Counted from the stretch's first letter, positions 4,021 through 29,746 are shown. The stretch: DNA of 32,000 nucleotides from Geotalea uraniireducens Rf4 (GCF_000016745.1 NC_009483.1:4230001-4262000); one strand, 5' to 3'. Translations and numbers: made by a program. The notes: generated by a model from the letters alone, not told the origin.

Positions 4021-4028
4021 TCAGCAAC

Positions 4029-4143
4029 AAATTCCCCCCTTTGAGAAAGGGGACCCAAACTGTGGGCCTAAAGGGCAAGGGGGGATTTTCCTGGCTGCGA
4101 TGAAAGGCAAATCCCCCTAAATCCCCCTTTCATAAAGGGGGAC
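4029..4143. repeat. GC-rich REP-like palindromic intergenic element (family 1, copy 2)
   Basis: Outer inverted pair AAATTCCCCCCT (4029-4040) and AGGGGGGATTTT (4078-4089). Perfect hairpins CCCCTTT-gag-AAAGGGG (4036-4052) and TCCCCCTTT-cat-AAAGGGGGA (4122-4142). Tandem AAATCCCCCT x2 at 4109-4128. Core GGACCCAAACTGTGGGCCTAAAGG (4051-4074) is shared with 143-166. Confidence 0.65.
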
Positions 4144-4174
4144 TTGGTCTTTCGGAAGATTGGCACAAATCTGC

Positions 4175-5464: not shown

Positions 5465-5718
5465 TTACGATGTTCCGCGATATAAGCCGCCATGGTCCTG
5501 ACCGACTGGAAAACCTTGGTACCGGTCGCAGCATCGGCCACCACCACGCCGAATGCCTTTTCCATCCCCACCACCAGCTGCAGGGCGTCGATGGAATCAA
5601 GCCCCAACCCTTCACCAAAAAGTGGAGCGTCGGTGTCGATATCAGCGATTGACATCCCCTCAATGCGGAGACTGTCGATGATCAGTTGCTTAACCTGGTT
5701 TATCAATTCTTCAGACAT
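5461..5718 (-). CDS. Acyl carrier protein (dedicated, cluster-specific)
   Basis: 85 aa. Phosphopantetheine attachment motif GLGLDSIDALQLV and an acidic helical carrier-protein pattern. It starts 1 nt after the stop of the upstream acyltransferase gene. Confidence 0.9.
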   Translation of the reverse strand: MSEELINQVKQLIIDSLRIEGMSIADIDTDAPLFGEGLGLDSIDALQLVVGMEKAFGVVVADAATGTKVFQSVRTMAAYIAEHRK

Positions 5719-6621: not shown

Positions 6622-6653
6622 TGAGCTGCCTTCTCGTTAAACTGCTGCCAATA

Positions 6654-9403: not shown

Positions 9404-9460
9404 TCAACGCTGATTTCCAGCAGATTGCAACTGTTTGACCCGCATGCTTACTGCCGGCGT

Positions 9461-10129
9461 TTAAGTTCTCATGTATTTCAAAAAAGTCATGCAGATATTC
9501 CAGGTATCGCGCACCGGCCGGTAATGGCTTGTGGCGCGGCCATCGGCCACACGCGCTGCTATCGGCAGGGAACCGATCATGAATCCGCCGCGCCAGGCCT
9601 TCATGAGGATCTCCATCTCCAAGTCGTAACCGGAAGCGGCAAGCTCCACGCCTCGCAACAACCTGGCAGAGTAATAGCGGAACCCGGACTGGCTGTCGCT
9701 TATCTCGAAGCCGGTCCGCTTCCTCATGCACCAGACACCAAAACGGTTCCAGAAACTGCGCAGGCCGGCCATCTGCTCGAACTGGGAAAAGCGGGAAGCG
9801 ATGAGGATGTCAAACCCCTTTTCCCTTGCGGCTTCAGCCAGCAGCCGAATGGCGGCAACGTCGTGCTGGCCGTCGGCATCAATGGTCACCACCCCTTCAT
9901 ACCCATGCATAAGCGCCCAGGCAAAGCCGGTTCTGAGGGCCGCCCCTTTGCCGAGGTTCTGCCGGTGGGTGAGGATGTTCAGCGGCAGGTGCTCTATGCG
10001 TGCAACGGTAGCATCCGTTGAGCCGTCATCGACGACCAGGAGCGGAAACCCGGAATTGAGCGCTTCTTCAGCCACGGCGGCAATGGTTTTCCCGGCGTTA
10101 TAGGCCGGAACGATTACGCAGATTGCCAC
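9461..10129 (-). CDS. Family 2 glycosyltransferase (Dpm1/GtrB-like)
   Basis: 222 aa with VIVPAYNAGKTI, VVDDGSTD and DADGQH (DxD) motifs. GTG start overlaps the 3' end of the deacetylase gene by 16 nt. Confidence 0.85.
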   Translation of the reverse strand: MAICVIVPAYNAGKTIAAVAEEALNSGFPLLVVDDGSTDATVARIEHLPLNILTHRQNLGKGAALRTGFAWALMHGYEGVVTIDADGQHDVAAIRLLAEAAREKGFDILIASRFSQFEQMAGLRSFWNRFGVWCMRKRTGFEISDSQSGFRYYSARLLRGVELAASGYDLEMEILMKAWRGGFMIGSLPIAARVADGRATSHYRPVRDTWNICMTFLKYMRT

Positions 10130-10968
10130 GTTGCCACCAGCTGCCTCATGGTACGGAATCTGAAATTTTGCAAAAGATGCCTGAGCCGTCCCTCTGCATC
10201 GCTCCTGGTTCCGTAGGCGGCAAAGGATTTCAGGGGCGAAAGACTGAGCCGCGGGCCAAAAGCCTCCATCTCCCGGGGGTGCAGATAGAGCACTGCCGGC
10301 ATTCCGGCATCATTGAGCTTTTTCACGGTGCGGCTTATCATCGACAGGGAAAAGAACCTGAAACCCCACCCGCCGCCGGTCGGCAGGTTGCAGATGGGAG
10401 ATGGGGTCACCATCGGCGGCAGCTCGAAAATACTCCCAGCGGAGGTCGCAATCGAAAACGGAGTGCGCGCCCCCCGGCGGTCGCCGATGAATGGAAGCGG
10501 GTTATAACTTGAATCGTACAAGCAACCTTCCTCATGCAAAATATCCAGCGCCCACGGAGTTTCAGGGCCAAGCGACCATTGGGGCGCCCTGAAACCGACC
10601 GGTTTGCATCCGGCCTGCGTTCCGATTATTTCAGCCGTGCGTCGAATCTCGTCCCGGAATTTCTTCGGCCCGAGAAGCGGTACCAGGGTGTGGGAATAAC
10701 CGTGAGAGGATACTTCATGGCCCGCGGCAACTATCATGGGGACCAGCAACGGCTCTTCTTCCGCAACCGACCCAAGCATGAAGAAAGTGGCCTTCACACC
10801 AAATTCAGCCAACATCGCCAGTATCCGCTCGATATTCTGCCGTACCCGCCTTTTTCCTGCGGGAACAACGGGCTCCGCGTCGCCACAGCAAACGTGATAC
10901 CAGTCTTCAACATCAATAGTCAACGCGTTATGCACCGGTATAAGAAAAACCCACCCCACCCCTGACAA
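10114..10968 (-). CDS. CE4 polysaccharide deacetylase family protein (resembles the PEP-CTERM-locus / DUF3473 subfamily)
   Basis: N-terminal NALTIDVEDWYHV and later HGYSH histidine motifs. The start is uncertain: TTG 10968 gives the longest ORF, and GTG 10935 gives MHNALTIDVEDW. First gene of the minus-strand operon, divergent from mltG. Confidence 0.8.
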   Translation of the reverse strand: MSGVGWVFLIPVHNALTIDVEDWYHVCCGDAEPVVPAGKRRVRQNIERILAMLAEFGVKATFFMLGSVAEEEPLLVPMIVAAGHEVSSHGYSHTLVPLLGPKKFRDEIRRTAEIIGTQAGCKPVGFRAPQWSLGPETPWALDILHEEGCLYDSSYNPLPFIGDRRGARTPFSIATSAGSIFELPPMVTPSPICNLPTGGGWGFRFFSLSMISRTVKKLNDAGMPAVLYLHPREMEAFGPRLSLSPLKSFAAYGTRSDAEGRLRHLLQNFRFRTMRQLVATWQSA

Positions 10969-11220: not shown

Positions 11221-12309
11221 ATGAAACGATATTTATATTTCTTACATAACAAAAAGTTGAGCCTGCTTCTGGTTACCGGATTATTACTACTTGCGCCGGT
11301 TTTACGATTCGCATTTTTCCTCACCACATCTGCCGGCGACGGCAGGAACGTGCAGATGCTGGACATCGGCCACGGTTCAAGTCCGGGGAAAATGGCTGCT
11401 GACCTCGAAACGAAGAAAATCATCTCCAGCGCCAGGCTGTTTACCCTCTACACCCGATTCAGCGGCGCCGACGCCAGATTGAAAGCCGGACTTTACCAGT
11501 TCAACGACGGCATGAAACCAACGGAAATCGTGCATAAGATGGTGGCCGGAGATGTTTACCTCCGTCTCTTTGCCCTGCCCGAAGGATACTCCACATACCA
11601 GGCGGCGGAACTGCTCCAGTCCCGCAGGTTTTTCAGCAAGGAATCGTTCCTCAAGCAGTGCGTAAACAGGAAACTACTCGCTGAACTCGGCATTCCGGGC
11701 AAAAGCGTTGAAGGCTACCTCTATCCCGGCGCCTACAACATCCCCCCGAACATGGACGAAGCTGAGCTGATCCGGCAGATGGTGCGGAAGTTCAACGAGG
11801 TGTATGCGGACAAGTTCGACGACCGGGCAAAAAAACTGGCAATGAACCGCCATAAAGTTCTGACCCTGGCCTCGATGATTGAGAAGGAGGCAGTCGACCC
11901 CTCCGAGCGCCCCATCATCTCTGCCGTCTTTTACAACCGGCTGAAAAAGGGGATGCGGCTGCAGAGCGACCCGACCGCTGTCTACGGTGTGCGTGCATTT
12001 GCCGGCAAGGTGTCGAAGCAGGACATCATGCGTCACTCCGATTACAACACCTATCTGATAAACGGTATCCCCCCGGGACCCATAGGCAATCCGAGCAGCG
12101 CGGCCATCGAAGCGGTTCTCAGCCCGGCCCAATGCGACTACCTCTACTTCGTGGCGAAAAAGGACGGCAATCACTTTTTTTCCAAAAACCTGGAAGAACA
12201 TAACCAGGCAGTGAACCGATATCTGAAATCTTCCGCAGCCGCTCCTCCAGCAACGCAACACATCGCGGGGTACACGAATGACCAGCCGAATCTTACTGGC
12301 AGAAGATAA
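11221..12309 (+). CDS. mltG: Endolytic murein transglycosylase MltG (YceG-like)
   Basis: Start chosen at ATG 11221 (MKRYLYFLHNKKLSLLLVTGLLLLAP, a membrane anchor). Signature LASMIEKEAVDPSERPIISAVFYNRLKKGMRLQSDPTAVYG, plus NTYLINGIPPGPIGNP. Confidence 0.9.
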   Translation: MKRYLYFLHNKKLSLLLVTGLLLLAPVLRFAFFLTTSAGDGRNVQMLDIGHGSSPGKMAADLETKKIISSARLFTLYTRFSGADARLKAGLYQFNDGMKPTEIVHKMVAGDVYLRLFALPEGYSTYQAAELLQSRRFFSKESFLKQCVNRKLLAELGIPGKSVEGYLYPGAYNIPPNMDEAELIRQMVRKFNEVYADKFDDRAKKLAMNRHKVLTLASMIEKEAVDPSERPIISAVFYNRLKKGMRLQSDPTAVYGVRAFAGKVSKQDIMRHSDYNTYLINGIPPGPIGNPSSAAIEAVLSPAQCDYLYFVAKKDGNHFFSKNLEEHNQAVNRYLKSSAAAPPATQHIAGYTNDQPNLTGRR

Positions 12310-14221
12310 CGAACAGCTGGCGCAGATGCTGCAAACGTTCCTCGCCGCACAGGGGCTCGATGTCCTGGTGGCGAAGAGCGGCGTCGAGGCCCTGCGGCTC
12401 ATCGCTTCCGGCAACGTGGACCTGCTCCTCCTCGACCTCAAACTGCCCGAACTGAGCGGCGTTGAGGTCCTGCAAAAGCTGCGCAAATCGCCCCAATGGG
12501 CAAAGCTTCCGGTAATCGTCATGACGGGTGTTTACAAGGGGGAAAAATACGCAGAGGGGGCTCGCAAACTGGGGGTAAACCACTACCTGGAAAAGCCATT
12601 TTCTCGCCAGGCGTTTCTGCATGCCGTCCAGTCAACCCTTGCGGAAATTCCGGGCAAGACAGAGGCGCCGAAACTGCTGGACCACCTTATCGACATATAC
12701 GACAAGGGGAAAAGCGGTCTCCTCACCCTGCCGCAGGGCATCCAGGTCTCTTTTTTCAACGGCGAGCCGTTCTCGTTCCTGTCAAAGGGGAAAAGAGATT
12801 TTGCCGCATTCCTCGTTTCCGCGGGGAAGATCGGCCAGGAAGACCTGAAACTCTTTGTCGACAACAACGAGGAGCGCCTCTTCTTCACCCAGGCCGGTCT
12901 TCTCACCTACGAGGACCTGGTGGATGAATCACGCCGCTTTCTGTCCGGCACGCTCACGGCCTCGTTGATGGAAGAAGCCGTTACAACCTTCAGCGAAGGG
13001 ACCTGCAACGCCGAACTCCCGCTCGTCCCCCTTTCCCTGCCGCGGCTTATCTACCAAGCCGCCAAAGATGGCGCGGGCCGCTTCGATGCAGACCGTTTCC
13101 TGGCGAAATTCGGCTGCCGTTACCCCGCCCGCACCAGGCTTTTCTTCCGCCGCACCAACCTGACCACCATGCGTAAGGGGGATATCGAACTGTTGGAGCT
13201 GGTCGATTCACGCCGCTCCCTTAACGATATCGTTGCCGCCGGCGAGGCACGAAACGAGTCCGCCGCCTTCTTCAGCTTTCTCTTCTCCCTCGGCATGATA
13301 GCCTTCCATGAGGCGCCTTCGCCCGATGAAGAACCGGACTTCCCGCAGAAGAACCTCTTCAACCGTCCCTTTGAAGAGCTGAAAACAGCGGAGGAATTCA
13401 AGGTCGGCTTTGACGACCTGGTGGAGGAAGTCTCAAACTCGGTGGAACTCGTGGTCGGAATCGAAGGGATGGCCGCCCCCCTCTCCTCCGACGAGATCAA
13501 TTTCGAACAGGCCGTCCAGCGCGACTATGCCGCCATCCAGGACAAAAACTATTACGGGATTTTCGGCCTCACCCGGAACAACTTCAGTTTCAACGCCTTG
13601 AAAGAGGCATACTTTGCCAAGACCCGCCAGTACACGCCGGAAAAATTCATGGAACTTTCCGGGACGACCATGAACATCGCCCAGGACATCCTCTCCCATT
13701 ACGCCAACGCCTACAACACCCTCTCCAACGTGGTGGCCAAGGAACGTTACGACGAAATGCTCAACGCCGATACCACCATGGGGCTTGACGGCAAGCAGGA
13801 CGACAAGCTCCAGGCGAGGATCCAGTTCCAGTCGGGTAATGTTTTCCTGGAGATGGAGGAGTTCGAAAACGCCGAAAAGGCGCTCCAGGAAGCCTACACG
13901 CTGGAACCGGACAACGCCCTGCATTGCGCCATCCTCGCCTGGGCAATCTACAGGAACCCGGCAAACAGAAGCTCCCGCGCCTCCCAGGAAAAGGCGAAAA
14001 TGCTTTTGGCCAAATCGCTGCAGATCGAGAAGTGCGCAGAGGCTTTCGCCTTGCGCGGCTGGATGCTGATCGACGAAGGTCGCGAGGGACTGGCAGAGGG
14101 TGAATTCCAAAAAGCGCTCAAGATCAATCCGAAGGACAAGAACGCCCGCGACGGTCTCAGACAGATCGCCGGAAAACGCGAAACGGAAAAGAAGGGGCTG
14201 TTCAGAAGGATTTTCAGATGA
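12278..14221 (+). CDS. Response-regulator receiver protein fused to a DUF4388-like region, a degenerate J-like domain and TPR repeats
   Basis: 647 aa. REC domain (ILLAEDNE..., acceptor context LLLLDLKLPELSG). KSGLLTLPQGIQVSFFNGEPF resembles DUF4388. The J-like segment NYYGIFGLTRNNFSFNALKEAYFAKTRQYTPEKF has TPE where HPD is expected. C-terminal TPR-like repeats. Overlaps the mltG 3' end by 32 nt. Confidence 0.8.
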   Translation: MTSRILLAEDNEQLAQMLQTFLAAQGLDVLVAKSGVEALRLIASGNVDLLLLDLKLPELSGVEVLQKLRKSPQWAKLPVIVMTGVYKGEKYAEGARKLGVNHYLEKPFSRQAFLHAVQSTLAEIPGKTEAPKLLDHLIDIYDKGKSGLLTLPQGIQVSFFNGEPFSFLSKGKRDFAAFLVSAGKIGQEDLKLFVDNNEERLFFTQAGLLTYEDLVDESRRFLSGTLTASLMEEAVTTFSEGTCNAELPLVPLSLPRLIYQAAKDGAGRFDADRFLAKFGCRYPARTRLFFRRTNLTTMRKGDIELLELVDSRRSLNDIVAAGEARNESAAFFSFLFSLGMIAFHEAPSPDEEPDFPQKNLFNRPFEELKTAEEFKVGFDDLVEEVSNSVELVVGIEGMAAPLSSDEINFEQAVQRDYAAIQDKNYYGIFGLTRNNFSFNALKEAYFAKTRQYTPEKFMELSGTTMNIAQDILSHYANAYNTLSNVVAKERYDEMLNADTTMGLDGKQDDKLQARIQFQSGNVFLEMEEFENAEKALQEAYTLEPDNALHCAILAWAIYRNPANRSSRASQEKAKMLLAKSLQIEKCAEAFALRGWMLIDEGREGLAEGEFQKALKINPKDKNARDGLRQIAGKRETEKKGLFRRIFR

Positions 14222-15982: not shown

Positions 15983-16144
15983 TGGTGCCTCCCTGCAGGA
16001 ATTCACGCTCTGTTCTTCTTACAATGTTTTGCGCCCTGGAGCAAGCACCACGTGCAATAGTTCAGACGTGTCAAGCCGCTTTGCCTCATGTTCAGGATTC
16101 TCTTTGCTTTTATCAATTTATTGCAAGGAATGTCGAAATTTACT

Positions 16145-16160
16145 TGGCAAATCTTTTGCA
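16145..16160 (+). promoter_or_regulatory. Sigma-54-type -24/-12 promoter-like motif upstream of uppP
   Basis: TGGCAA-atctt-TTGCA has correct GG-N10-GC spacing and lies 120 nt upstream of the uppP start. This is a motif match only. Confidence 0.3.
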
Positions 16161-16279
16161 TAATTGCATTCTTGTTAATCGGCATCCAGGTATGCCCCAC
16201 CATCGGCATCTGCCTTTAACTCACGGATTGACGATTGTTGCTAAAGTGGAAAAAACGTTACGTCCCCAAGGAGGCTTGA

Positions 16280-17044
16280 TTGACTATTCTTGAATCTATC
16301 ATACTCGGTGTCGTGGAGGGATTGAGCGAATTCCTCCCCATCTCTTCCACCGGGCACCTCATCCTCGCGTCCGCCCTGTTGAAAATCAAACAGACCGATG
16401 CCCACAAGGTATTCGAGGTTACGATCCAGTCGGGGGCCATACTGGCGGTTGTCTACATCTACCGCAAGCAGCTCGCATCCCGATCGGACCTGCTTCTGAA
16501 GGTTTGCGCCGCATTCATTCCCACGGGGGTCTTAGGCTATCTCCTTTACAAGACCGTCAAATCATTCTTCCAGCCATCGATGGTGAGTTACATGCTGATC
16601 GCAGGGGGGATTGCGTTTTTAGCCATTGAAAGGCATCTGAAGAACCGCTCCTCTGCTGGGGAGGGTCTCCAGGACATCTCCTACGGGAAGGCCTTGCTCA
16701 TAGGGATCATCCAGAGCCTTTCCATGATCCCGGGGGTATCCCGCTCCGGAGCTACCATCATGGGCGGGCTTTTGGTCGGCATGGACAGGAAGGCTGCCGC
16801 AGAGTTCTCCTTTCTCCTCGCCATCCCCACCATGCTCGCGGCCACCGCCTTCGACATATACAAGAACTTCGGCATCTTCAGCTTTGGAGATTGGCAAAAC
16901 ATCCTCGCCGGCTTCGTAACCTCCTTTATCTTTGCCGTTATCGGCATTAAGGCGCTCCTGAAATTCATCACCGGCCATACATTCGTGCCGTTCGCCATCT
17001 ACAGGATCGCCGCAGGGGTCCTGTTCCTCCTGTTTCTGCCGTAG
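16280..17044 (+). CDS. uppP: Undecaprenyl-diphosphate phosphatase UppP (BacA)
   Basis: 254 aa polytopic membrane protein with VEGLSEFLPISSTGHL and PGVSRSGATI signature motifs. TTG start at 16280 is preceded by an AAGGAGG RBS (16268-16274). Confidence 0.9.
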   Translation: MTILESIILGVVEGLSEFLPISSTGHLILASALLKIKQTDAHKVFEVTIQSGAILAVVYIYRKQLASRSDLLLKVCAAFIPTGVLGYLLYKTVKSFFQPSMVSYMLIAGGIAFLAIERHLKNRSSAGEGLQDISYGKALLIGIIQSLSMIPGVSRSGATIMGGLLVGMDRKAAAEFSFLLAIPTMLAATAFDIYKNFGIFSFGDWQNILAGFVTSFIFAVIGIKALLKFITGHTFVPFAIYRIAAGVLFLLFLP

Positions 17045-17223: not shown

Positions 17224-18102
17224 ATGGGAAACAAATTCATCATTATCTCCTGCATTCTCCTGCTCAGTCTGCATTCCAGCGGAAAGAACGGCTTCGCTGC
17301 CGACAAGCCGGTAGTTCATTTCGGCATTAATTTACGTTACAACCCTGTGATTCTCTACAAGCGCTATCAGCCGCTCATGGATTATCTCACACAGAACTCG
17401 CCGTACAGATTCGAATTGAAAATCAGCCGCGATTACCAGGAAGCCGTCAAGTTCCTGAAAGAAGGAAGAACCCAGATAAGTTCCTTGGGGGATGGCGCTT
17501 TCATCGAAGCCATCCTGCTTCATGGCGCAGTTCCCATTGTCAAGCCGCTCAATAAGGACGGAAAGCCCTTCTACCGATGCGCTATCATCGTCCCGCGCAA
17601 TTCCGCTCTTAATTCCCTTCAGAACCTGCGCGGCAAAAGCATCGCCCTTGGATCATACCATTCAACTACAGGCAACCTTATCCCCAGATATCTTCTTGCG
17701 GTTAACGGTATAAACTTGCAAGGCATTGGCTCTGTCGCATCCCTGAAGAACCACGATGCAGTGACCAAGGCAATCCTGAAGGGACAATATGACGCGGGTG
17801 CTGTCAAGGATGTCTTTGCTGAAAAATACGGGGAATACGGCCTGCGGGTCTTGGCCTACTCCGACCCCATTCCTTCCGTGCCTCTAGTGGTAAGAAACAA
17901 TGCACCCCGTGAGTTTGTAAAGGCGGTCACCGAAGCCCTTTTGAAACTCGATCCGCGCAATCCCGCCCATCAAAAGCTCATGGAGAACTGGGACGAAGAA
18001 TACAAACACGGCTTCGTCTCCGCAGACATCTCAGGCTACCGGGAAATCTTCAGGATGTTTCGCTCGATTCCGAACGGTTGCGGCATGAGGTGTCACCGGT
18101 GA
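17224..18102 (+). CDS. PhnD-like periplasmic substrate-binding protein (phosphonate/phosphite ABC-type SBP fold), no cognate permease or ATPase nearby
   Basis: Start at ATG 17224 gives the signal peptide MGNKFIIISCILLLSLHSSGKNGFA/AD. The segment HFGINLRYNPVILYKRYQPLMDYL...GSYHSTTGNLIPR is typical of the PhnD-like family. Its stop overlaps the kinase start. Confidence 0.75.
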   Translation: MGNKFIIISCILLLSLHSSGKNGFAADKPVVHFGINLRYNPVILYKRYQPLMDYLTQNSPYRFELKISRDYQEAVKFLKEGRTQISSLGDGAFIEAILLHGAVPIVKPLNKDGKPFYRCAIIVPRNSALNSLQNLRGKSIALGSYHSTTGNLIPRYLLAVNGINLQGIGSVASLKNHDAVTKAILKGQYDAGAVKDVFAEKYGEYGLRVLAYSDPIPSVPLVVRNNAPREFVKAVTEALLKLDPRNPAHQKLMENWDEEYKHGFVSADISGYREIFRMFRSIPNGCGMRCHR

Positions 18103-19577
18103 AGGCTCCATTTTTTTTCAGCATCAAGATAAGGTTTGTCCTTACTGCGGCACTCATCATGGCACTCTCTTCCATCACATGGGGGAGCTGGGCCTGGTAT
18201 AACGAGAAGCAGCATCTCATCGAAAAACTTGAAGGACAAGGGAAACTTCTCCTGACCTCTCTCAAGGCTCCCATCATCAATGCAATCGTTTATGAAGAGA
18301 TTGGCCAGGTTGAGGATGTAGGGCTTCTCGATAATTTTGTGGGGGAGATCGTCGGCAATCATGAACTGCCGACGCCTTATGCCTTTATTACCGACCAGGA
18401 AGGGAAAGTGCTCGCCCACAACCATTATGAGGAATTTGGCAAGAAGTATCATGATCCCTTGACCCTTGCCGCGCTGGCCGGAGATAACGTTCAGAGCAGA
18501 ATCGTGCGGGACGCCCCTGGAATAGGTCCTGTTCTGGATATGGCCATGCCGCTGCGCATTTCCGGAAAAAGCTGGGGCATGCTCCGTATCGGGCTTTCCA
18601 TGATTCCCATGGAAGGGGAGTTGTCAATCCTTCGCATGCAGATCCTCTCCTTCTCCGCCCTCTTTTTCCTGATCGGCACCGCCATCTTCTATTTGATCGG
18701 CCGCACCATGTCACGCCCTCTTGAGCAGCTTTCCAATGCCATGGCAGATGTAAATCATGAATCCCTGGAAGTGACGGCATCACCAAGGCAAAGGAATGAT
18801 GAAATCGGCCTGTTACAGGAAAGCTTCAATGAAATGCTGACGCGACTGAAAAAGAGTGAACAGGAAAGGCAGAGGGCTGTAAGCCAGATGATTCAGAATG
18901 AGAAACTGGCAACCATCGGCAAGATCGTCGCGGGGGTTGCCCATGAAGTCAACAACCCCTTGGCGGCCATATCGACCAGCATATACAATCTGGATGGAAA
19001 GGCGCCCCAGGAGCTAAAAAGGTATATCGAAATACTAAAGAAGGGGGTGCATCGCATAGAGGCGATTGTGCGCCAGCTGACCGATTTCAGCCGGGTAAAC
19101 ACTCTGGATCTGCGACCTGTGCCGAGTGAGCTCTTTTTCAAGGAGGCCGCAGGTTTTGCCGGCATGGCTCTCAAGGGCACCGATCTGAGATTTGTCGGCA
19201 CCGACTCCTGTCCACCAACCACGCTGGACATTGACAAGGGCAAATTGCACCAGGTGGTTCTCAACCTGATTCTCAATGCTTTGGACGCTTCACCACAACA
19301 AGGCACGATAGAATTTCTCGCCTACTGCCATGATGGGTTTTACTTTTTGGTTGTCACAGACCAGGGGAGTGGAATTCCTCCGGAGGACAGGGAAAAAATA
19401 TTCGAGATCTTTCACACAACCAAGCCGGCAGGGGAAGGGAGCGGCATTGGTCTTGCCATATGCAGGAGCATTGTCGAGATGCACAGGGGAGAAATTATTC
19501 TCGAGAGCAGGCAAGGGATGACAACATTCATTGTTAAAATACCGCTGGGCAGGGGAGATTTTCATGGACAGGCTTAA
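18099..19577 (+). CDS. Sensor histidine kinase (periplasmic sensor domain, HAMP, HisKA, HATPase_c)
   Basis: Two TM segments flank a periplasmic domain of about 150 aa. H-box AGVAHEVNNPL, with N/G boxes LNLILNALDAS and GSGIGLAICRSIV. The likely start GTG 18099 overlaps the SBP stop (GTGA). The longest ORF starts at TTG 18078. Confidence 0.85.
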   Translation: MKAPFFFSIKIRFVLTAALIMALSSITWGSWAWYNEKQHLIEKLEGQGKLLLTSLKAPIINAIVYEEIGQVEDVGLLDNFVGEIVGNHELPTPYAFITDQEGKVLAHNHYEEFGKKYHDPLTLAALAGDNVQSRIVRDAPGIGPVLDMAMPLRISGKSWGMLRIGLSMIPMEGELSILRMQILSFSALFFLIGTAIFYLIGRTMSRPLEQLSNAMADVNHESLEVTASPRQRNDEIGLLQESFNEMLTRLKKSEQERQRAVSQMIQNEKLATIGKIVAGVAHEVNNPLAAISTSIYNLDGKAPQELKRYIEILKKGVHRIEAIVRQLTDFSRVNTLDLRPVPSELFFKEAAGFAGMALKGTDLRFVGTDSCPPTTLDIDKGKLHQVVLNLILNALDASPQQGTIEFLAYCHDGFYFLVVTDQGSGIPPEDREKIFEIFHTTKPAGEGSGIGLAICRSIVEMHRGEIILESRQGMTTFIVKIPLGRGDFHGQA

Positions 19578-20913
19578 ACTCTTGATTATTGAAGACGATC
19601 CCCTGTTCGGCGAAGCCATTTGGGAAGCTCTGCAAGCGGCCGGTTACCGGACCAGGCTTGCGACAAGTGGTGCTGAAGCTCTGGCGGCTGTTGCAGAGGA
19701 GAGTTTCGACCTGATGCTTCAGGATATACGACTTCCCGATGCCAATGGACTGGATATACTGAGGGAAATTTTGCAGAGACAGCCCCATTCCAGGGCGTTG
19801 GTCATGACCGGGTTCGCTACCGTAGATAGTGCTGTTGAAGCCATGAAAATAGGGGCTTTCGATTTTCTTACCAAACCATTTCCCATGGAAATGCTGCTCA
19901 TGAAACTGCAGAAGGTTCTGGAATTCAAGCAGATGGAAAAGGAGATCGACTCTTTCAGGAGTAAGGAAGAGGAATGTCATCTCATAGTCAGTCGCAGTCC
20001 TGCCATGAAGGACCTGCTGGAAATGGCAAGGGCCGTGGCGGTCACGGATGCCACCGTGCTCTTGCAGGGGGAAAGCGGCACCGGCAAAGAACTCCTGGCT
20101 GAAACCATCCACAAGACAAGCAAAAGACGCCACAAACCGTTCATCCAGGTGAACTGTGCCGCCATCCCCGAAACCCTCCTGGAAAGCGAGCTTTTTGGTG
20201 TGGAACGGGGAGCTTTTACCGGGGCAGACAGGAGTCGCCAAGGCTATCTTGAGGCAGCGGAAAGCGGCACATTGCTGCTGGATGAGATAGGAGATCTGCC
20301 CCTCCATTTACAGGGCAAAATCCTGAGGGTTCTGGAAGAGAAAAAGGTCTTCAGGGTGGGAGGGACCAGGGCGTATAATGCCAATTTCCGGCTTATCGCC
20401 GCCACCAACTGGGACCTGAAGGAGATGGTTCAGGAAAAGAAATTCCGCGAAGACCTTTATTTCAGGCTGAATGTAGTGCCCTTGACCATCCCTCCTCTCA
20501 GGGAACGGCGGGACGACATCCCCCTGCTGATTGCGCACTTCCAGAAGTGCCTGTCAGCGAAAGATGCCGGGAAGAAAGTGATTTTTTCTCCCGAGGCCCT
20601 TGAGCTCCTCTGCCGTTACGACTACCCGGGAAACATCCGTGAGCTGAAGAATATTGTAGAGCAACTCACCGTACTTTATCCGGGAGAGGCGATCAAGCCC
20701 TTGCATATTCCCGTCTCATTGCAGAAAGAGTCATGGGTCGGGAATCTTTTCGAGAACTTTGTCGTCGGTAAACCGCTGAAGGATGCAGTCGGGGAATTCG
20801 AAACCAGATACATCGAAAAAGTCCTGAAAAGCGCCGGCGGTAATAAATCCCTCTCAGCCAGAATTCTCGGCATATCCCGGCAGATGTTGTGGGAAAAGCT
20901 CAAACAGAGATAA
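19564..20913 (+). CDS. Sigma-54-dependent response regulator (NtrC family enhancer-binding protein)
   Basis: REC domain (LLIIEDDP..., DLMLQDIRLPD). AAA+ domain with GESGTGKE Walker A and the GAFTGA sigma-54 contact motif. C-terminal Fis-type HTH (SLSARILGISRQMLWEKLK). ATG 19564 overlaps the kinase 3' end by 14 nt. Confidence 0.9.
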   Translation: MDRLKLLIIEDDPLFGEAIWEALQAAGYRTRLATSGAEALAAVAEESFDLMLQDIRLPDANGLDILREILQRQPHSRALVMTGFATVDSAVEAMKIGAFDFLTKPFPMEMLLMKLQKVLEFKQMEKEIDSFRSKEEECHLIVSRSPAMKDLLEMARAVAVTDATVLLQGESGTGKELLAETIHKTSKRRHKPFIQVNCAAIPETLLESELFGVERGAFTGADRSRQGYLEAAESGTLLLDEIGDLPLHLQGKILRVLEEKKVFRVGGTRAYNANFRLIAATNWDLKEMVQEKKFREDLYFRLNVVPLTIPPLRERRDDIPLLIAHFQKCLSAKDAGKKVIFSPEALELLCRYDYPGNIRELKNIVEQLTVLYPGEAIKPLHIPVSLQKESWVGNLFENFVVGKPLKDAVGEFETRYIEKVLKSAGGNKSLSARILGISRQMLWEKLKQR

Positions 20914-21163
20914 GGCTCGGAACTTGGCCGGCTATTTCGCCGAACTGTAAACAATCCTTTACGGTCCCCACTGCCTTCCCATTCGAAATCCATCATTCAA
21001 AGCCAACTTCTCCATAAAAACAACCCGCCGATTCATTTTATATTTCCGATCATATCCCCCCTGCGACATTCCGAAGTATCAACAACCATAAAGGGATTCG
21101 CGAGTAATTTGCCACATTATTAGAATGCGAACAAATGCTGAAAAACCTCTTTCATTAATTGCG

Positions 21164-21179
21164 TGGCACACCTCTTGTT
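21164..21179 (+). promoter_or_regulatory. Sigma-54-type -24/-12 promoter-like motif upstream of the decahaem cytochrome gene
   Basis: TGGCAC-acctc-TTGT has a perfect -24 element and correct spacing. The -12 element is GT rather than GC. It lies about 220 nt upstream of the cytochrome start and directly downstream of a sigma-54 activator gene. Confidence 0.45.
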
Positions 21180-21398
21180 ATAGGAGACAGAAGCAGATAG
21201 GAAGGGAGGTGGAGATTTACGGCAGCTTCTGCACGTTGGGATCAACTAATTCCAATTTTCAAATCGAGGATGGAATCAAGGGCGGCAAGGAATGAGGCGA
21301 CGAAGGCGTACAGATAGTACGTTGAGGAGCCGAAGACGAGCCAACAAAGATAGCGCCTTGATTTGGAATTGGAATAATTCAAGAAGGAGGTTTATTTG

Positions 21399-22298
21399 AT
21401 GAACAAAAGAGAGATACCAAAAAAGTTGTTTCTGTTGTCGGCTCTGACCGGCTGCCTGTTGCTGATAGGCGCAATCGTTTTTGCCGCTGATGGAGGCTAC
21501 GTCGGCAGCGAAAAGTGCAAGGAGTGTCACGCGGAGCTGGCCAAGGCATTTTCCACGAACATTCACGCCAAGGCGGGAGCATACGGCGTCAAGGACGCAG
21601 GCTGCGAGTCCTGTCATGGCGCGGCTGGCGGCCATGTAGCCTCCGGGGACAAATCGTCCATCATCAATCCGTCCAAGGTCGACTACGAGGCCGCCTCGGC
21701 AGCCTGTCTCAAGTGCCATACGAAGGATAAGGGGCAGATGTTCTGGCACGGCAGTATTCATGAGGGCCAGGGATTGAGCTGTGTGGCCTGTCACAAGGTC
21801 CATGGTGGCAATGACAAGCTGCTCGCCAAGAAAAATGAGAGCGACCTCTGTTTCACCTGTCATGCCGATGTCCGCGCTGACATGTTCAAACGCTCCAAAC
21901 ATCCCATGCGGGACTCTTCTTCTCCCACCACCGAAGGGAAAATGACCTGCTCTTCCTGCCACAACGCCCACGGCGCCAAGGGTGAAAAGCTGATCGACGC
22001 CAAGTCCTTCAATGACAAGTGTTACGAGTGCCATTCGGAGAAAAAGGCTCCGCTCCTCTGGGAGCATTCTCCTGTCAAGGAAGACTGCCTCACCTGCCAC
22101 AGCTCCCACGGTTCATCCAATGACAAGATGCTTGTCACGAAGGTTCCGCGCCTTTGCCAGGAGTGCCATATGCAGGGGCGGCATCAGACGGGAACCCTGG
22201 GCACCAATTCTGTTTTTGCATTCAGCAGGGGTTGCCTGAACTGCCACCCGATGGTACACGGCTCCAACAACCCGTCCGGGCCGGTGCTGCAAAGGTAA
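21399..22298 (+). CDS. Periplasmic decahaem c-type cytochrome (MtrA/DmsE/PioA/MtoA-like)
   Basis: Ten CxxCH motifs in about 300 aa: CKECH, CESCH, CLKCH, CVACH, CFTCH, CSSCH, CYECH, CLTCH, CQECH, CLNCH. Signal peptide KKLFLLSALTGCLLLIGAIVFA/AD. GAAGGAGG RBS lies 8 nt upstream of ATG 21399. Confidence 0.9.
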   Translation: MNKREIPKKLFLLSALTGCLLLIGAIVFAADGGYVGSEKCKECHAELAKAFSTNIHAKAGAYGVKDAGCESCHGAAGGHVASGDKSSIINPSKVDYEAASAACLKCHTKDKGQMFWHGSIHEGQGLSCVACHKVHGGNDKLLAKKNESDLCFTCHADVRADMFKRSKHPMRDSSSPTTEGKMTCSSCHNAHGAKGEKLIDAKSFNDKCYECHSEKKAPLLWEHSPVKEDCLTCHSSHGSSNDKMLVTKVPRLCQECHMQGRHQTGTLGTNSVFAFSRGCLNCHPMVHGSNNPSGPVLQR

Positions 22299-22332: not shown

Positions 22333-24840
22333 ATGATGAAGCGAAAAAGTTATAAACATATGACGCTGGCCATGCTCCTGTCGTTCTTTGCGACAGTGGG
22401 AGCGGCGCAAGCGGATACGGATATTATGGAAGGTAAGGCGACCATCAGTGGCGGAATCAATGCGGGAGTTCAGCAGAAGATCATCGATGGATCTCGCGAA
22501 AAGTTCGAAGAATACCGGGACGTACAGAACGGTTTCCTGATCAATGACTTCCGCCTTAAAGGCGATGGCAACACAACCCCTTACTTCCTCGACGTCAAGA
22601 TAAAAAATCCGGTACAGGATAATGAGTTCTACCAGTTAAACGGCGGGGTCCATGGAAAATATAATTTCGGCCTTTTCTATGACAGCATCCCGCATAACTT
22701 CAGCAGCGGCAAATTTCTGCTGAATGATTTGGGAGGGGGGCGATACGCCATTGGCGATGTCATCCAGAGCCAGCTGCAGGCAAATGAGATCCTGCGGAGC
22801 CAGCGGCTGACATATGCACCTCCCCCCGGTGGCGTTACCAATACCGCAGGCGGCGCTTTCATCAATCCGGCTGACGCCCAGAACCAAGCCCAGGACGCGG
22901 GCATGACCGGCATCGTCAACAATCTGTACGGGTCCGCCAACACAATCAAGCTTGGCCTGAAGAGGGAAAAAACAGGTTTCGCTTTCGACTATCGGATCTC
23001 GGACGACGCAAAGGTCTGGACAAAGATAAGCAACGAGAAACGTATCGGCACCAGGCGCATCAACCAAGGCACCTACGAGCGGTACAATAACGGCAACACT
23101 ACCGCAGGAGACCGCGGCCATATCGTCGATTTCTTTCTGGCAGCGGGGATCGAGCTGCCGGAGACCATCGACTATCGGACCACCACCCTGAACATCGGCA
23201 CCGGCGTCTACAAGAAGAACTGGCTGGCTGACGTCGAATATACCTTTACCAACTTCGATAATAAGGTATCGACCCTGACCTGGGACAACCCCTTCAGGAT
23301 TACCGACGCAACCGCTACAAATGCAGCTGCCACTCCTCCGGCTCTCGTCGGCACGGCAAACCCCTTCAACAGGGGCCGTTCTGCCACCGGTCAGATGTCC
23401 CTCACACCGGACAGCCAGTCCCATGACCTGGCCGTTTCCGGCTCGGTTGAACTGCCGCTGCACAGCAGGGTGTCCGGCACCATCAGCTACGGCTGGATCA
23501 CCCAGGACGAGGCCTTTGCCCCCTACACCAGGAACAGCGCCATCAGCTTAATTGCAGGCACCGCCGGACCAGGCTTTGATGTGACCAATCCCGCCAACCT
23601 GCCACAGCAAGACCTGAACGGCAAAGTAGCGACCCTGTTCCAGAGTTACCAGCTGACCAGCAAGCCGGTTGAACCGCTGACCGTGACAGCCCGCTATCGC
23701 TACTATGACTACGACAACAGGTCCGACAACATCACCTTCCCCGGCTACTCGGCCTTCGGTGATTCGTTCTGGAGAACGGAGAAGAACGACGTCACTTCGG
23801 GCCAGGATGCCCCGGTTCGCAACGAGGCCCTTTCCTTTACCCGTCAAAATGCCGAACTCGCCATCGATTACCACCTGATGAAGCCGCTCACCGTCATGGT
23901 CGAAGGCTTCTGGGAAGGATGGGACCGGGAGCAGCTCCGAATCGACGGCACCAACGAACTGGGTGCAGGAGGAGGCTTCATCTTCAAGCCGTTCAAGGCG
24001 GCCAAACTCAAGGGTAACTACCGCTACGCCCACCGCAGCGTTGACGGCTACAAACCGGGCAACACCGCAGAAAACCCCGAGGCTGTGGGACTGGCCAACT
24101 ACGACTGGGCTGACCGGGTCCGTCACAAAGCCGACCTCCGCTTACAGATGATGCCTGTGGAGGCCTTAACGGTGGGGCTATCCGGCCAGTACCTGAATGA
24201 TAAGTATGGTAACGACAACAGGTTCGGTCTCAAGAAGAACGAAAACGTCACAGGCGCCATCGACATTGCTTACGCTGCATCCGAGGCCCTGTCGTTCTAC
24301 GCCAATTATGTGAAGGAGTACCGCAAGGGGGCGATGCAGTCGGCAGCGAAAGACGATGCCTTCAATGGGTCGCTTAACAGCCTCATCCCGCCTGGCGGCG
24401 CTCCGTTCAATCCGGAAAACTACTGGAACACCGACATCTATGAGAAGGTCGACACGTTCGGGGTGGGTGCGACGGTCCAGGTCATTCCCGACAAGCTGAC
24501 CGTGAACACCAGCTACAATCTCTCTAACAGCAAGATGGATTTCAATACCGTCAACCCTAACGGGGCAGTAAAGCTGGCAAACGCCTTGGGCCAGTCCTGG
24601 CCGACAGTCAGAAACCGTCTCCAGGAGCTCAAGACCGACATCGGCTACAACTTCACCAAGAACCTGAAGGCGGGTGTCACTTACCTCTATGAGTGGTATA
24701 AACTGGACGATTTCGTCAACACATCGGCGTATATGGCCGGCGCGTCTGTTGAGAACACCACCAAGTACTTATTTACCGGTGCCAACAACTTCAGCTACGA
24801 CGCACATGTGGCCGGGGCATACCTTAGTTACAAGTTTTAA
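22333..24840 (+). CDS. Large outer-membrane beta-barrel protein (MtrB/PioB-like, decahaem-associated)
   Basis: 835 aa. Signal peptide ...FFATVGAAQA/DTD. Composition is rich in Y/G/N/T/D with alternating-strand character, and the C-terminus is ...AYLSYKF (aromatic terminal residue typical of OMPs). It directly follows the decahaem gene. AAAGGAGG RBS. No cysteine anywhere in the translation. Confidence 0.8.
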   Translation: MMKRKSYKHMTLAMLLSFFATVGAAQADTDIMEGKATISGGINAGVQQKIIDGSREKFEEYRDVQNGFLINDFRLKGDGNTTPYFLDVKIKNPVQDNEFYQLNGGVHGKYNFGLFYDSIPHNFSSGKFLLNDLGGGRYAIGDVIQSQLQANEILRSQRLTYAPPPGGVTNTAGGAFINPADAQNQAQDAGMTGIVNNLYGSANTIKLGLKREKTGFAFDYRISDDAKVWTKISNEKRIGTRRINQGTYERYNNGNTTAGDRGHIVDFFLAAGIELPETIDYRTTTLNIGTGVYKKNWLADVEYTFTNFDNKVSTLTWDNPFRITDATATNAAATPPALVGTANPFNRGRSATGQMSLTPDSQSHDLAVSGSVELPLHSRVSGTISYGWITQDEAFAPYTRNSAISLIAGTAGPGFDVTNPANLPQQDLNGKVATLFQSYQLTSKPVEPLTVTARYRYYDYDNRSDNITFPGYSAFGDSFWRTEKNDVTSGQDAPVRNEALSFTRQNAELAIDYHLMKPLTVMVEGFWEGWDREQLRIDGTNELGAGGGFIFKPFKAAKLKGNYRYAHRSVDGYKPGNTAENPEAVGLANYDWADRVRHKADLRLQMMPVEALTVGLSGQYLNDKYGNDNRFGLKKNENVTGAIDIAYAASEALSFYANYVKEYRKGAMQSAAKDDAFNGSLNSLIPPGGAPFNPENYWNTDIYEKVDTFGVGATVQVIPDKLTVNTSYNLSNSKMDFNTVNPNGAVKLANALGQSWPTVRNRLQELKTDIGYNFTKNLKAGVTYLYEWYKLDDFVNTSAYMAGASVENTTKYLFTGANNFSYDAHVAGAYLSYKF

Positions 24841-24867
24841 GCATGACCTCCTTCATGCGTGTTATGG

Positions 24868-24891
24868 GCGCCGGCAACGGCGCTTTTTTTT
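24868..24891 (+). terminator. Rho-independent terminator after the barrel gene
   Basis: GCGCCG-gcaa-CGGCGC stem-loop followed by an 8-T run (24884-24891). Confidence 0.8.
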
Positions 24892-24912
24892 GGCCAATTG
24901 AATTAGTCGGTT

Positions 24913-24988: not shown

Positions 24989-26513
24989 TTAATACTACTC
25001 CGACACATATAGTTCTTTAACATTTCAATATTCGCACCAGAAGCTTTGCAATCTGATGCCTGATGTCAGGCAAGGACGGCATGCCTTTGAGTCGTTGCCT
25101 CCGCCTCCATCGCTCAGAGGAACGAAGAGAACAGCAACGATGGCGCCACTTTTCCAGGTGTTTGGTTTTCAGAACAAAGCGTCGTTGGCCAGTGTCGATT
25201 TTTTCTGAATCCAGTTGCTCCGCGCTGTCGCACTCTTCTGTTTTTTTTGCTGCAAACGCAACAGTGTCAGATAGCCATATGCCAGGGACGTCAGGAGCAC
25301 ATGTCGATGCCATCCGCTCCATGAGCGCCCTTCATGGTGATCAAGGCCAAGCTCTTCCTTTAGCTGTTGATAGCCATGCTCTATCCAATAACGTTCATGG
25401 TAGAGGCGGGCAAGGTCAATCGTTGCCAGATGCTGCGGCATATTGCTGAAGAAATAGCGAAGCTCGTATCCACCCAGGTTCAGGGGGCGGCGCTCTATCA
25501 GGAGCCAGACTTGTTCATGATGATTGCCCTGCCGCCATCCGTGAGCCGGCCACACTCTCATTGAGACGGCCTCTGCAACAAGTGGCTTGTCCTTGGAATT
25601 GAGCCTCAATTCTAGCCGTTGCCATGCATCATCGGCAATGCTTTCGCCCAGTACCGACAGCTTGACCGGTTCGGGGTTTGTGGAGACTACCTTAGGGCGA
25701 GTTCGTGGACGCCCTCGCTTATGCTCTTTGACTGGCGCAATTTCAAAGACCGGCTCCTCAAGAAATACCGGGGTGTTGGAGTAAGCTCCCAGGATGTAAT
25801 TTTCACTGCGGGACTCAAGCTCCTTGCGAAACTCCGGAATGTTGCCATACCAGCTGTCAGCAAGGACTGCACGATGGGGAACATTGTCTTTTCGGGCCAG
25901 GTCAACAAAATCAAGTGCCATGCGCCATTTTGACTTATGGTGCACTGACTCCGGCATGTGAGCCTTTTTACGCTTTGCGGTGCAATCATCATTTTGCTGA
26001 TCCCAGGATTCCGGGACGAACAGTTCCATGGCATATGGCCAGGCGACATCTCTGCCGACATACGTCATGCTTACGCCAATCTGACAGTTGTCAGTCTTGC
26101 CTGATGCACCGCAGTATTGCCGGGCAACACATACACTGTCGTACCCTTTCTTAGGGAACCCGGTATCATCAAGAACCAGGATCCCCTGCGGGTCGGAAGT
26201 GACGTCAAGCATGGAACGGCGGAATTGCTCAGCAACAAGTTGATCGTCCCATTTGGCAGTCGAAAGGAGGCGCTGCATACTTCGTTCAGATGCGTTTACC
26301 TTCTCTGACATGGGTTCAACTGACTTGCGCTCACCGTCCATGAGCAGGCCGGCCAAGTAACATTCTGCCAGTTCACGGCTCTCTGACCGATGGAAATAGC
26401 CATAATAGGGAGCCATATATTCTTCGATGCCGGGGAAAACGATCTCTGTTGTCATTCGCAGAGATTATCACATGAAACAGATTATATCAAGCTATGTGTC
26501 GGAGTAGTATTAA
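24989..26513 (-). mobile_element. Complete insertion sequence, IS701-like (IS4-superfamily DDE), about 1.5 kb
   Basis: Perfect 21-bp terminal inverted repeats TTAATACTACTCCGACACATA (24989-25009 and the reverse complement of 26493-26513). They enclose a single transposase ORF. The outermost TTAA is palindromic, so it could be the IR tip or a 4-bp target duplication. Confidence 0.85.
25169..26455 (-). CDS. DDE transposase, IS701-family-like
   Basis: 428 aa. The N-terminus FHRSESRELAECYLAGLLMDGERKSVEPMSEKV is typical of IS701-type transposases. Candidate DDE residues lie in LVLDDTGFPKKG, VLADSWYGN and YWIEHGYQQLKEELGLDHHEGRSW. Confidence 0.85.
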   Translation of the reverse strand: MTTEIVFPGIEEYMAPYYGYFHRSESRELAECYLAGLLMDGERKSVEPMSEKVNASERSMQRLLSTAKWDDQLVAEQFRRSMLDVTSDPQGILVLDDTGFPKKGYDSVCVARQYCGASGKTDNCQIGVSMTYVGRDVAWPYAMELFVPESWDQQNDDCTAKRKKAHMPESVHHKSKWRMALDFVDLARKDNVPHRAVLADSWYGNIPEFRKELESRSENYILGAYSNTPVFLEEPVFEIAPVKEHKRGRPRTRPKVVSTNPEPVKLSVLGESIADDAWQRLELRLNSKDKPLVAEAVSMRVWPAHGWRQGNHHEQVWLLIERRPLNLGGYELRYFFSNMPQHLATIDLARLYHERYWIEHGYQQLKEELGLDHHEGRSWSGWHRHVLLTSLAYGYLTLLRLQQKKQKSATARSNWIQKKSTLANDALF

Positions 26514-29719: not shown

Positions 29720-29746
29720 GGGGTCAGGTCAGACATTCGGACATTT
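29720..29746. repeat. Left 27-nt inverted repeat flanking the Y1 transposase-like gene
   Basis: GGGGTCAGGTCAGACATTCGGACATTT. Its reverse complement matches 30697-30723 at 25/27 positions. It overlaps the last 5 sense codons and the stop codon of the gene (KCPNV-stop). Confidence 0.75.

Follow-up and report, generated by a model that had tools for sequence, protein, structure and literature searches.

A putative sigma-54 three-component sensory system adjoining an MtrAB-type porin–cytochrome operon in Geotalea uraniireducens Rf4

AioXSR and ArxXSR, the arsenite oxidase regulators of Agrobacterium, Rhizobium NT-26 and Alkalilimnicola, combine a PF12974 substrate-binding protein (SBP) that senses an arsenic oxyanion with a kinase and an AtoC-type sigma-54 regulator, and have an RpoN promoter and a regulator site 5' of the target (PMC5908839). 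The sensor domain of AioS is sCache-like (PMC8050422), and RpoN is encoded by Geobacter species (PMC2700814, Table 3). Here we analyse a 32,000-nucleotide stretch of DNA from Geotalea uraniireducens Rf4 (NC_009483.1:4230001-4262000; the whole stretch is called the window below), with the region 17224–22298 in focus, in which genes for an SBP, a sensor kinase and a sigma-54 activator precede an operon for an MtrA-type decahaem cytochrome and an MtrB-type porin. We consider it likely that this trio works as a "three-component" signalling system of the XSR type, dedicated to the mtrAB operon beside it.

The locus shares with AioXSR and ArxXSR the orphan PF12974 SBP, the sCache-like kinase, the AtoC/NtrC-type sigma-54 activator, a common SBP structural family and, as predicted here, an RpoN promoter and a candidate regulator site 5' of the adjacent respiratory operon. 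The target differs, being an mtrAB porin–cytochrome operon here and an arsenic-transforming molybdoenzyme in the described systems, as does the host, which belongs to the Geobacteraceae. The window SBP matches AioX at low identity (E=3e-6), has no cysteine at the position equivalent to the As(III) ligand Cys106 of AioX, and carries an additional C-terminal C-X3-CH tail. In the ArrXSR system of Chrysiogenes arsenatis, ArrX (PDB 6x6b) is a close solved relative of the SBP and is likewise a sensor, not a component of a transporter, but ArrR, a regulator of the CitB/FixJ type, lacks an AAA+ domain (PMC5908839). The closest paralogues are uncharacterised triads that stand before genes for a cytochrome, ArrA, ArrB and ArrD in metagenome-assembled genomes (MAGs) of Desulfuromonadales and Nitrospirae (loci L095, L096, L176-178 and L003). 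In these Arr-linked triads the SBP is 61-66%, the histidine kinase 54-56% and the response regulator 53-58% identical to that of the window. They share gene order, overlaps and the C-X3-CH tail with the window and have a related 16-bp palindrome, whereas the downstream operon, the clade, the latch-loop and pocket-shell residues of the SBP and the type of recognition helix and operator all differ. The initial annotation of this DNA had overlooked the homology to AioXSR and ArrXSR, together with the C-X3-CH tail and a second sigma-54 promoter, 5' of bacA.

The output genes also have described counterparts. As in PioAB of Rhodopseudomonas palustris and MtoAB of Sideroxydans, a gene for an MtrA-type decahaem protein is followed by one for an MtrB/PioB porin, making two genes with no MtrC; the length of the window porin (835 aa) is a further likeness in the comparison with PioAB, MtoAB and MtrCAB. 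The window locus differs from these systems in having no pioC, mtoD or cymA-type partner, and from MtrCAB of Shewanella in having no adjacent MtrC/OmcA gene. Shewanella MtrB carries an N-terminal CXXC motif; the window MtrB has no cysteine in its first 156 residues, and thus no such motif. We know of no dedicated sigma-54 three-component regulator for PioAB, MtoAB or MtrCAB, and found no report of one in the literature searched; nor did we find a paper that describes mtrAB neighbours as a sigma-54 three-component regulator, or a sigma-54/SBP regulator of Geobacter MtrAB. The XSR architecture is of a known kind, its coupling to a PioAB/MtoAB-like conduit appears to be undescribed, and a defined enhancer/promoter pair with co-variation of recognition helix and operator appears to be new.

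The features of the locus on which the argument depends are as follows.

17224–18102, plus strand: SBP gene, the orphan "X" component, with a full-length PF12974 Phosphonate-bd domain (E=2.8e-64)
18099–19577, plus strand: sensor histidine kinase gene ("S"), encoding a transmembrane segment, a periplasmic sCache_3_2 domain, a second transmembrane segment, HAMP, HisKA (His282) and HATPase_c (Pfam)
19564–20913, plus strand: sigma-54-dependent response regulator gene ("R"), encoding REC (Asp54), AAA+ (GAFTGA) and HTH_8
20927–20965, plus strand: candidate upstream activating sequence of about 40 nt, conserved and directly 3' of the regulator stop codon
21164–21179, plus strand: P2, a predicted sigma-54-type promoter TGGCACACCTCTTGTT for mtrAB (-24 GG, -12 GT), with a conserved footprint
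21190–21398, plus strand: mtrA leader, with block A GGGAGGTGG at 21204–21212 and block B GGGATCAAC at 21238–21246
21399–22298, plus strand: gene for an MtrA/PioA/MtoA-type periplasmic decahaem cytochrome (10 CXXCH motifs, 299 aa)
22333–24840, plus strand: gene for an MtrB/PioB-type outer-membrane porin of 835 aa (PF11854, E=1e-173)
24866–24893, plus strand: strong intrinsic terminator, an 8-bp GC-rich stem followed by a T run, closing the two-gene mtrAB operon

The initial annotation had described, at 17224–22298, genes for an SBP, a kinase and a sigma-54 activator directly upstream of an MtrAB-like module with a decahaem cytochrome and a barrel, and every element was found where it had been placed. 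It had also described the SBP as having no transporter partner and as translationally coupled through GTGA to a kinase that overlaps an NtrC-type activator, and each of these points holds. The SBP, a protein of 292 aa with an N-terminal signal sequence, belongs to the PhnD/PtxB/ArrX/AioX family, and genes for an ABC permease or ATPase are missing from the window, from the gene table of a 97%-identical locus (L083) and from those of related loci. Its stop codon, TGA at 18100–18102, overlaps an in-frame GTG at 18099 of the kinase open reading frame to give GTGA. The kinase, whose sCache_3_2 domain is matched with E=4e-24, overlaps the regulator by 14 nt, with its stop codon TAA at 19575–19577 and the regulator ATG at 19564. 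The best NCBIfam matches of the regulator are to AtoC (the top match) and NtrC; its Sigma54_activat domain is matched with E=1e-70, its Walker A motif is GESGTGKE, and the recognition helix of HTH_8 is ISRQMLWEK.

The MtrA-like protein scores 248 bits against TIGR03508 (DmsE-family decahaem cytochromes; cut-off 192) and matches MtrA of the Shewanella MtrCAB structure (PDB 6r2q, chain A) with E=2.6e-61, and the porin scores 287 bits against TIGR03509 (cut-off 240), with a weak match to chain B of 6r2q. No mtrC, that is, no gene for an extracellular decahaem lipoprotein of the MtrC/OmcA type, occurs in the window or in relatives free of the window's insertion sequence (IS). Loss of mtrC through IS insertion was considered and rejected, since the IS-free relatives are also without it and a terminator lies directly 3' of mtrB.

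Genomic context ties the triad to mtrAB across relatives. Kinase homologues, which carry names from Geobacter sp., Geobacteraceae and Desulfuromonadaceae MAGs, were picked for this comparison by identity level alone, blind to their neighbours. All six kinases at 59-97% identity (P0001, P0002, P0007, P0010, P0014 and P0025) are encoded within an SBP–kinase–regulator triad followed by mtrA and mtrB, the spacer before mtrA being 0.35-0.6 kb (485 nt in the window). All five at 53-56% identity (P0050, P0098, P0077, P0064 and P0059) belong to triads followed by an Arr-like cluster, comprising a cytochrome, a molybdopterin subunit, a Fer4_11 subunit and a TorD-like chaperone. The molybdopterin subunit in L096 matches Shewanella ArrA with E=6e-264, and the Arr-linked locus L177 sits inside an ars island; no ars genes are found near Mtr-linked loci in the gene tables examined. 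Loci 97-98% identical to the window, from three JGI metagenomes (L083-85 and L097), have the same gene order without the transposase gene of the window. Nine further triad-linked loci (L099, L109, L116, L117, L131, L138, L142, L145 and L162) emerged when metagenome contigs were scanned with an alignment of MtrB. The five-gene unit is conserved in at least 12 Geobacteraceae lineages and in varied chromosomal contexts, with at least four different pairs of flanking genes:

L083: bacA and M16 peptidases
L086: bacA and a metal-resistance/RND cluster
L088: gcvTHP-lplA and radical SAM
L090: hypothetical genes and TauE
L092 and L094: gcvTHP-lplA and cheW

The MtrB proteins encoded behind the triad are of two types, only 25-30% identical. 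In neighbour-joining trees of the SBP, kinase and regulator the Mtr-linked triads form one clade, with the Arr-linked triads as its sister group, and in all three trees the two MtrB types are intermixed inside the Mtr-linked clade. L088 and L092, which have type 2, and L094, which has type 1, share a chromosomal site 3' of gcvTHP-lplA, and L092 and L094 also share the downstream cheW genes. Because the two MtrAB types occupy the same site and are intermixed in the trees, we conclude that the conduit genes have been exchanged as a cassette behind a resident sensor. That the association of triad and mtrAB was kept through such exchange is hard to explain without functional coupling between them.

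The Mtr-linked triads seem to have branched off, in the Geobacteraceae, from a lineage whose usual targets are Arr-type enzymes. The triad order is also seen in a Nitrospirae locus (L003), followed by a cytochrome and an Arr/Psr-like molybdoenzyme set, and in Acidobacteriota (L004) and Zhuqueibacterota (L005); these three loci come from a contig scan with a kinase alignment, which caught the generic kinase core and returned mostly unrelated kinases. In the Arr-linked loci L095 (13119-14048) and L096 (12830-13771), a second, divergent PF12974 SBP is encoded after the regulator gene, and in L095 a further SBP–kinase pair begins after the arr genes (20397-21566). These extra SBPs indicate that several such sensors cluster around one respiratory operon.

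Within the spacer between the regulator gene and mtrA, the initial annotation had noted TGGCAC-N5-TTGT about 220 nt ahead of the decahaem gene and had called it a promoter only tentatively, given the GT at -12. This element, TGGCACACCTCTTGT, lies at 21164–21178 on the plus strand, 221 nt 5' of the mtrA ATG. A search of both strands of the window for TGGCAC-N5-TTGY gives it as the sole exact match, with about 0.15 expected by chance. A GG-N10-GC/T element is present in all 13 distinct regulator–mtrA intergenic regions, as the GT variant TGGCAYNCNTCTTGTT in the window, L086 and L090, and as TGGACCGAATCATGCT-like sequences in the remaining loci. The recurrence of the same GT in three lineages indicates that it is a conserved variant, and the promoter call is to that extent strengthened. 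In a local alignment of 14 sequences, TGG and TG(C/T)T are the sole conserved columns of the promoter stretch, and the position of the motif is kept relative to a conserved block in the leader. Control mtrAB paralogues with no sigma-54 regulator 5' have no comparable promoter motif. The motif is present in two controls that have a different sigma-54 regulator: L105 (TGGCATAGAAAGTGCT), in which a divergent triad stands 5' of mtrAB (a PF12974 SBP 24% identical to that of the window, a kinase, and a sigma-54 regulator 39% identical), and L107 (TGGCACGACCCTTGCT), whose kinase is different and whose sigma-54-type regulator is 37% identical.

The unit of about 40 nt that follows the regulator gene is aligned and conserved in 14 of 14 intergenic regions, with a tandem duplicate in L092 and L138, and in every locus the -24 element follows it at a distance of 205-305 bp. 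Its palindromic core, GTAAACAATCCTTTAC at 20947–20962 (GTAAA-N6-TTTAC), is the only exact match to TGTAAA-N6-TTTACR in the window. The sequence of the palindrome co-varies with that of the recognition helix: regulators with SRQML go with GTAAA-N6-TTTAC, SRKVL regulators (L086, L090 and L117) with GTAAC-N6-GTAGC, and the SRK[VAS]L regulators of Arr-linked triads with a 16-bp palindrome, GTTAC-N6-GTAAC. This match between helix and operator is not simply inherited, because the window regulator is sister to that of L086, an RKV type, yet is of the RQM type and has the GTAAA palindrome. We take the palindrome to be the probable enhancer of the regulator, for which this co-variation is the best available evidence.

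The leader that precedes mtrA is about 120 nt longer in the window than in most relatives. Conserved blocks, GGAGGTG some 25-30 nt 3' of the -12 element and CAGGGATCAAY, mark this leader and those of L086, L094, L099, L109, L116, L138 and others; the second of the blocks (block B) also occurs in mtrAB loci that have no triad. Taken together, these blocks resemble an extended Shine-Dalgarno sequence or GGA-type protein-binding motifs. The 485-nt intergenic region matches no Rfam family at either gathering or permissive thresholds. The idea of a conserved, structured leader RNA was rejected, as RNAalifold gives only 3 pairs and -1.3 kcal/mol, and so was a leader peptide, the conserved nucleotide blocks being in different reading frames between loci.

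Comparisons of sequence and structure bear out the place of the SBP in the PhnD/PtxB/ArrX/AioX family. Sequence searches against solved structures match PtxB (E=2e-20) and ArrX (2e-15) ahead of AioX, with PhnD also matched, and a profile search against solved chains gives 3.5e-41 for PtxB and 2.8e-35 for ArrX. The AlphaFold2 (AF2) model is confident, with a predicted local distance difference test score (pLDDT) of 92.2, and in Foldseek its target-normalised TM-score is ~0.8 to PtxB, ArrX, PhnD and AioX. Pocket residues were mapped through the alignment with PtxB and the PtxB residues published in PMC5700983. The Tyr, Tyr, Ser-Thr-Ser and His cage of the PtxB/PhnD/HtxB binding proteins is kept, as Tyr71 (Tyr49 of PtxB), Tyr117 (Tyr94 of PtxB and Tyr138 of ArrX), Ser147-Thr148-Thr149 at the S-T-S motif, and His177 (His155 of PtxB). 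The window SBP differs from these ABC transporter components in having no PhnCE- or PtxAC-type transporter genes close by in any locus examined, in being coupled to a kinase, and in two pocket residues: the Tyr that caps phosphite in PtxB is replaced by Ile, and the latch residue Asp16 by Arg38. The Mtr-linked and Arr-linked SBPs also differ consistently from one another. At positions 35-37, which align with the PtxB latch loop around Asp16, the Mtr-linked proteins have INL where the Arr-linked have VIP; at 91-92 the residues are GA versus VT, at 181 T versus A, and at 176, beside the ligand His, N versus H, and a relaxation of S-T-S to S-x-T/S is a further difference between the two groups. 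As the core is kept and the latch and pocket-shell residues differ, we infer a ligand of oxyanion type that is probably not that of the Arr-linked sisters. The statement in the initial annotation that the ligand cannot be read from the sequence stands, the candidates having been narrowed only to this type. A lipoprotein form of the SBP was rejected: the IISC in its signal region is not conserved and the segment preceding it is too short, and AxA-type cleavage sites are conserved instead.

The footprints, synteny and co-variation make regulatory wiring from the triad to mtrAB probable. In the mechanism that we propose, the secreted orphan SBP would bind an oxyanion-type ligand in the periplasm and dock, in its liganded form, on to the periplasmic sCache domain of the kinase, which would autophosphorylate at His282 and pass the phosphate to Asp54 of the regulator. 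The regulator would then assemble on the GTAAA-N6-TTTAC enhancer just 3' of its own gene and, through DNA looping and ATP hydrolysis, open the predicted sigma-54 promoter TGGCAC-N5-TTGT some 215 bp further on. Transcription of mtrA and mtrB up to the terminator at 24866–24893 would yield a PioAB/MtoAB-like electron conduit without MtrC. The sensor operon, here together with bacA, would probably also be read from a sigma-54 promoter, P1. The SBP–kinase interaction, the phosphorelay, the binding of the regulator to the palindrome, the activity of the promoter, the nature of the ligand and its activating effect are what we infer from these comparisons. The initial annotation had suggested that the porin–cytochrome module is switched on by a periplasmic ligand sensed through the orphan SBP; the regulatory link in that suggestion, for which gene adjacency within a single genome had been the only sign, has gained support, and activation by a ligand keeps its conditional standing.

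Several observations weigh against such a circuit. The GT at -12 in the sub-clade of the window is non-canonical, and individual motif scores of 6-7/10 in several loci are not significant alone. Over 200 bp separate the candidate enhancer from the promoter, and in 12 of 13 loci no integration host factor site of the E. coli type (WATCAR-N4-TTR) is found in this interval. The homologous palindrome of some Arr-linked loci stands too close to the downstream gene for a classical upstream enhancer, which makes the function of the palindrome somewhat doubtful; in L176-178 the spacing is too short and no classical sigma-54 promoter was found 3' of it, so that for this clade an enhancer role is less certain. 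The trees come from simple neighbour joining and carry no support values. As no terminator was detected in the spacer that leads from the regulator gene to mtrA, read-through transcription is possible; close MtrAB paralogues stand without a triad in L102, L098 and L103, from which it follows that MtrAB does not require one. The lack of a detected terminator, the non-canonical -12 element, the motif scores and the triad-less paralogues would fit a relationship of mere neighbours, in which motif and palindrome are non-functional or otherwise used and mtrAB is transcribed by read-through or from another promoter. We regard this as quite improbable, however, since the synteny survives different flanks and the swap of mtrAB cassettes, the position of the motif is fixed relative to the conserved leader block, its presence or absence tracks that of a sigma-54 regulator, and the helix/operator co-variation points to the regulator acting on the palindrome.

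Two other explanations accept a role for the SBP and differ from ours in what it binds or does. The circuit could be the same and the ligand an arsenic oxyanion, arsenate or arsenite, as for the Arr-linked sister triads, with MtrAB belonging to a response to arsenic, for instance by acting on Fe(III) minerals that contain it. The window SBP is, at 61-66% identity, about as close to the Arr-linked SBPs as to many Mtr-linked orthologues, it keeps the oxyanion core, including the equivalent of ArrX Tyr138, and the sister systems carry the ArrA match and the ars island described above. The two groups of SBPs nevertheless fall in separate clades and differ consistently at 35-37, 91-92, 176, 181 and in the S-x-T/S motif, the AioX-type As(III)-ligand cysteine is missing, and no ars genes stand beside the Mtr-linked loci; an arsenic ligand is for these reasons rather unlikely. 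Alternatively, the SBP could be a transport component, with MtrAB taking up a metal or other solute. Genes annotated "ABC transporter substrate-binding protein" and "ATP-binding protein" have been noted beside MtrA and MtrB genes in some Geobacterales operons, with transport or metal uptake suggested (PMC11492766), and the SBP scores just above the cut-off of NCBIfam TIGR01098, the phosphate/phosphite/phosphonate ABC substrate-binding family (115.7 against 112.05). Against transport, a gene for a permease or ABC ATPase is found in neither the window nor the related gene tables, translational coupling joins the SBP gene to the kinase gene in all loci, and the sister systems are sensor triads placed before respiratory enzyme genes. 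Moreover, the kinase homologues carry the NCBI name "ATP-binding protein", which may underlie the transporter reading. We consider a transport role highly improbable, and retain the three-component system dedicated to mtrAB as the preferred explanation.

MtrA-family cytochromes and MtrB/PioB porins in Desulfuromonadia were reported as a surprise in 2024 (PMC11492766), so that conduits of this type have only recently been noted in Geobacterales, and the neighbouring SBP was then read as a hint of transport. The analysis presented here re-reads the neighbouring genes as a dedicated sensor from the lineage of arsenic-oxyanion sensors. It predicts that a specific soluble, oxyanion-like signal in the periplasm, rather than contact with a mineral or electrode, would switch the conduit on, and it offers concrete parts for testing, namely an SBP with which ligands can be screened, a candidate enhancer of 40 nt and a predicted promoter. 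The locus would also be an example of a sensory module rewired from Arr to MtrAB output, with operator and recognition helix co-evolving.

The C-terminal tail of the SBP is a conserved feature whose function is unexplained.

18079–18096, plus strand: codons of the SBP C-X3-C-H motif (Cys286...Cys290-His291)

The 17 SBPs of Mtr- and Arr-linked triads all terminate in ...IPxGC-x3-CH(R), and among 44 diverse SBP representatives (30-63% identity) the C-X3-CH tail is present in 19, including proteins from Latescibacterota and Acidobacteriota MAGs. It lies outside the Pfam domain, with low pLDDT in the AF2 model, and the solved ArrX, AioX and PtxB chains stop before this position. CX3CH is a documented, though rarer, c-haem attachment motif (PMC11492766, background section), and a haem-bearing sensor SBP is for this reason possible. 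We tentatively suggest, as a somewhat doubtful proposal, that C-X3-C-H may be a covalent c-type haem site, making the SBP a "cytochrome binding protein" that would combine ligand occupancy with the redox state of the periplasm and gate alternative electron-transfer modules through a sigma-54 relay. If so, it would fall to a haem-SBP to set when an MtrAB conduit is made here, and an arsenate reductase in the sister clade. A Cys2His site for a metal or metalloid is the alternative. Whatever its role, this tail on sensor SBPs is widespread.

The second sigma-54-type promoter and the gene that follows it lie upstream of the triad.

16144–16161, plus strand: P1, a near-consensus predicted sigma-54-type promoter TTGGCAAATCTTTTGCAT, about 120 nt 5' of bacA
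16280–17044, plus strand: bacA, undecaprenyl-diphosphatase (PF02673, E=4e-75)

P1 has GG-N10-GC and agrees with the consensus at 10 of 11 positions. It is conserved as GTGGCAACGATTTTGCAA in L086 despite diverged surroundings, in a locus where bacA abuts the SBP gene, and TTGGCyG-N5-TTTGCA is found directly 5' of the SBP gene in L088, L092, L094, L116 and L138. Given its retention in L086 and these equivalents in five lineages, the sensor operon is probably sigma-54 dependent. The bacA gene, which adjoins the triad only in the L083-87 sub-clade, is probably co-transcribed with the SBP, kinase and regulator genes, and P1 probably drives all four. A GTTAC-N6-GTAAC palindrome is present at the sensor-operon promoter of L086 and L090, with only a degenerate copy in the window; in those two loci it is compatible with autoregulation.

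Other features of the window include mobile elements near the cassette. An IS of about 1.5 kb at 24994-26509, which carries a DDE_5 transposase gene (25169-26455, minus strand), is bounded by perfect terminal inverted repeats of 16 bp and has duplicated about 5 bp of its target, sits between the mtrB terminator and the M16 peptidase genes and is absent from the 97-98% identical loci L083-85 and L097. A second mobile-element-type gene, at 29729-30679 on the minus strand, encodes an IS200-like Y1 transposase domain and a DnaA C-terminal HTH. Further upstream, a minus-strand cluster at 1266-10968 contains three B12-binding radical SAM genes and a radical SAM/SPASM gene, with genes for a thioesterase, an acyltransferase, a lipid A-type acyltransferase, a glycosyltransferase and a polysaccharide deacetylase, and looks like an uncharacterised cluster for envelope lipid or glycolipid modification. 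At 12278-14221, a gene that overlaps the end of the preceding YceG-like gene encodes a 647-aa protein with a receiver domain and TPR repeats.

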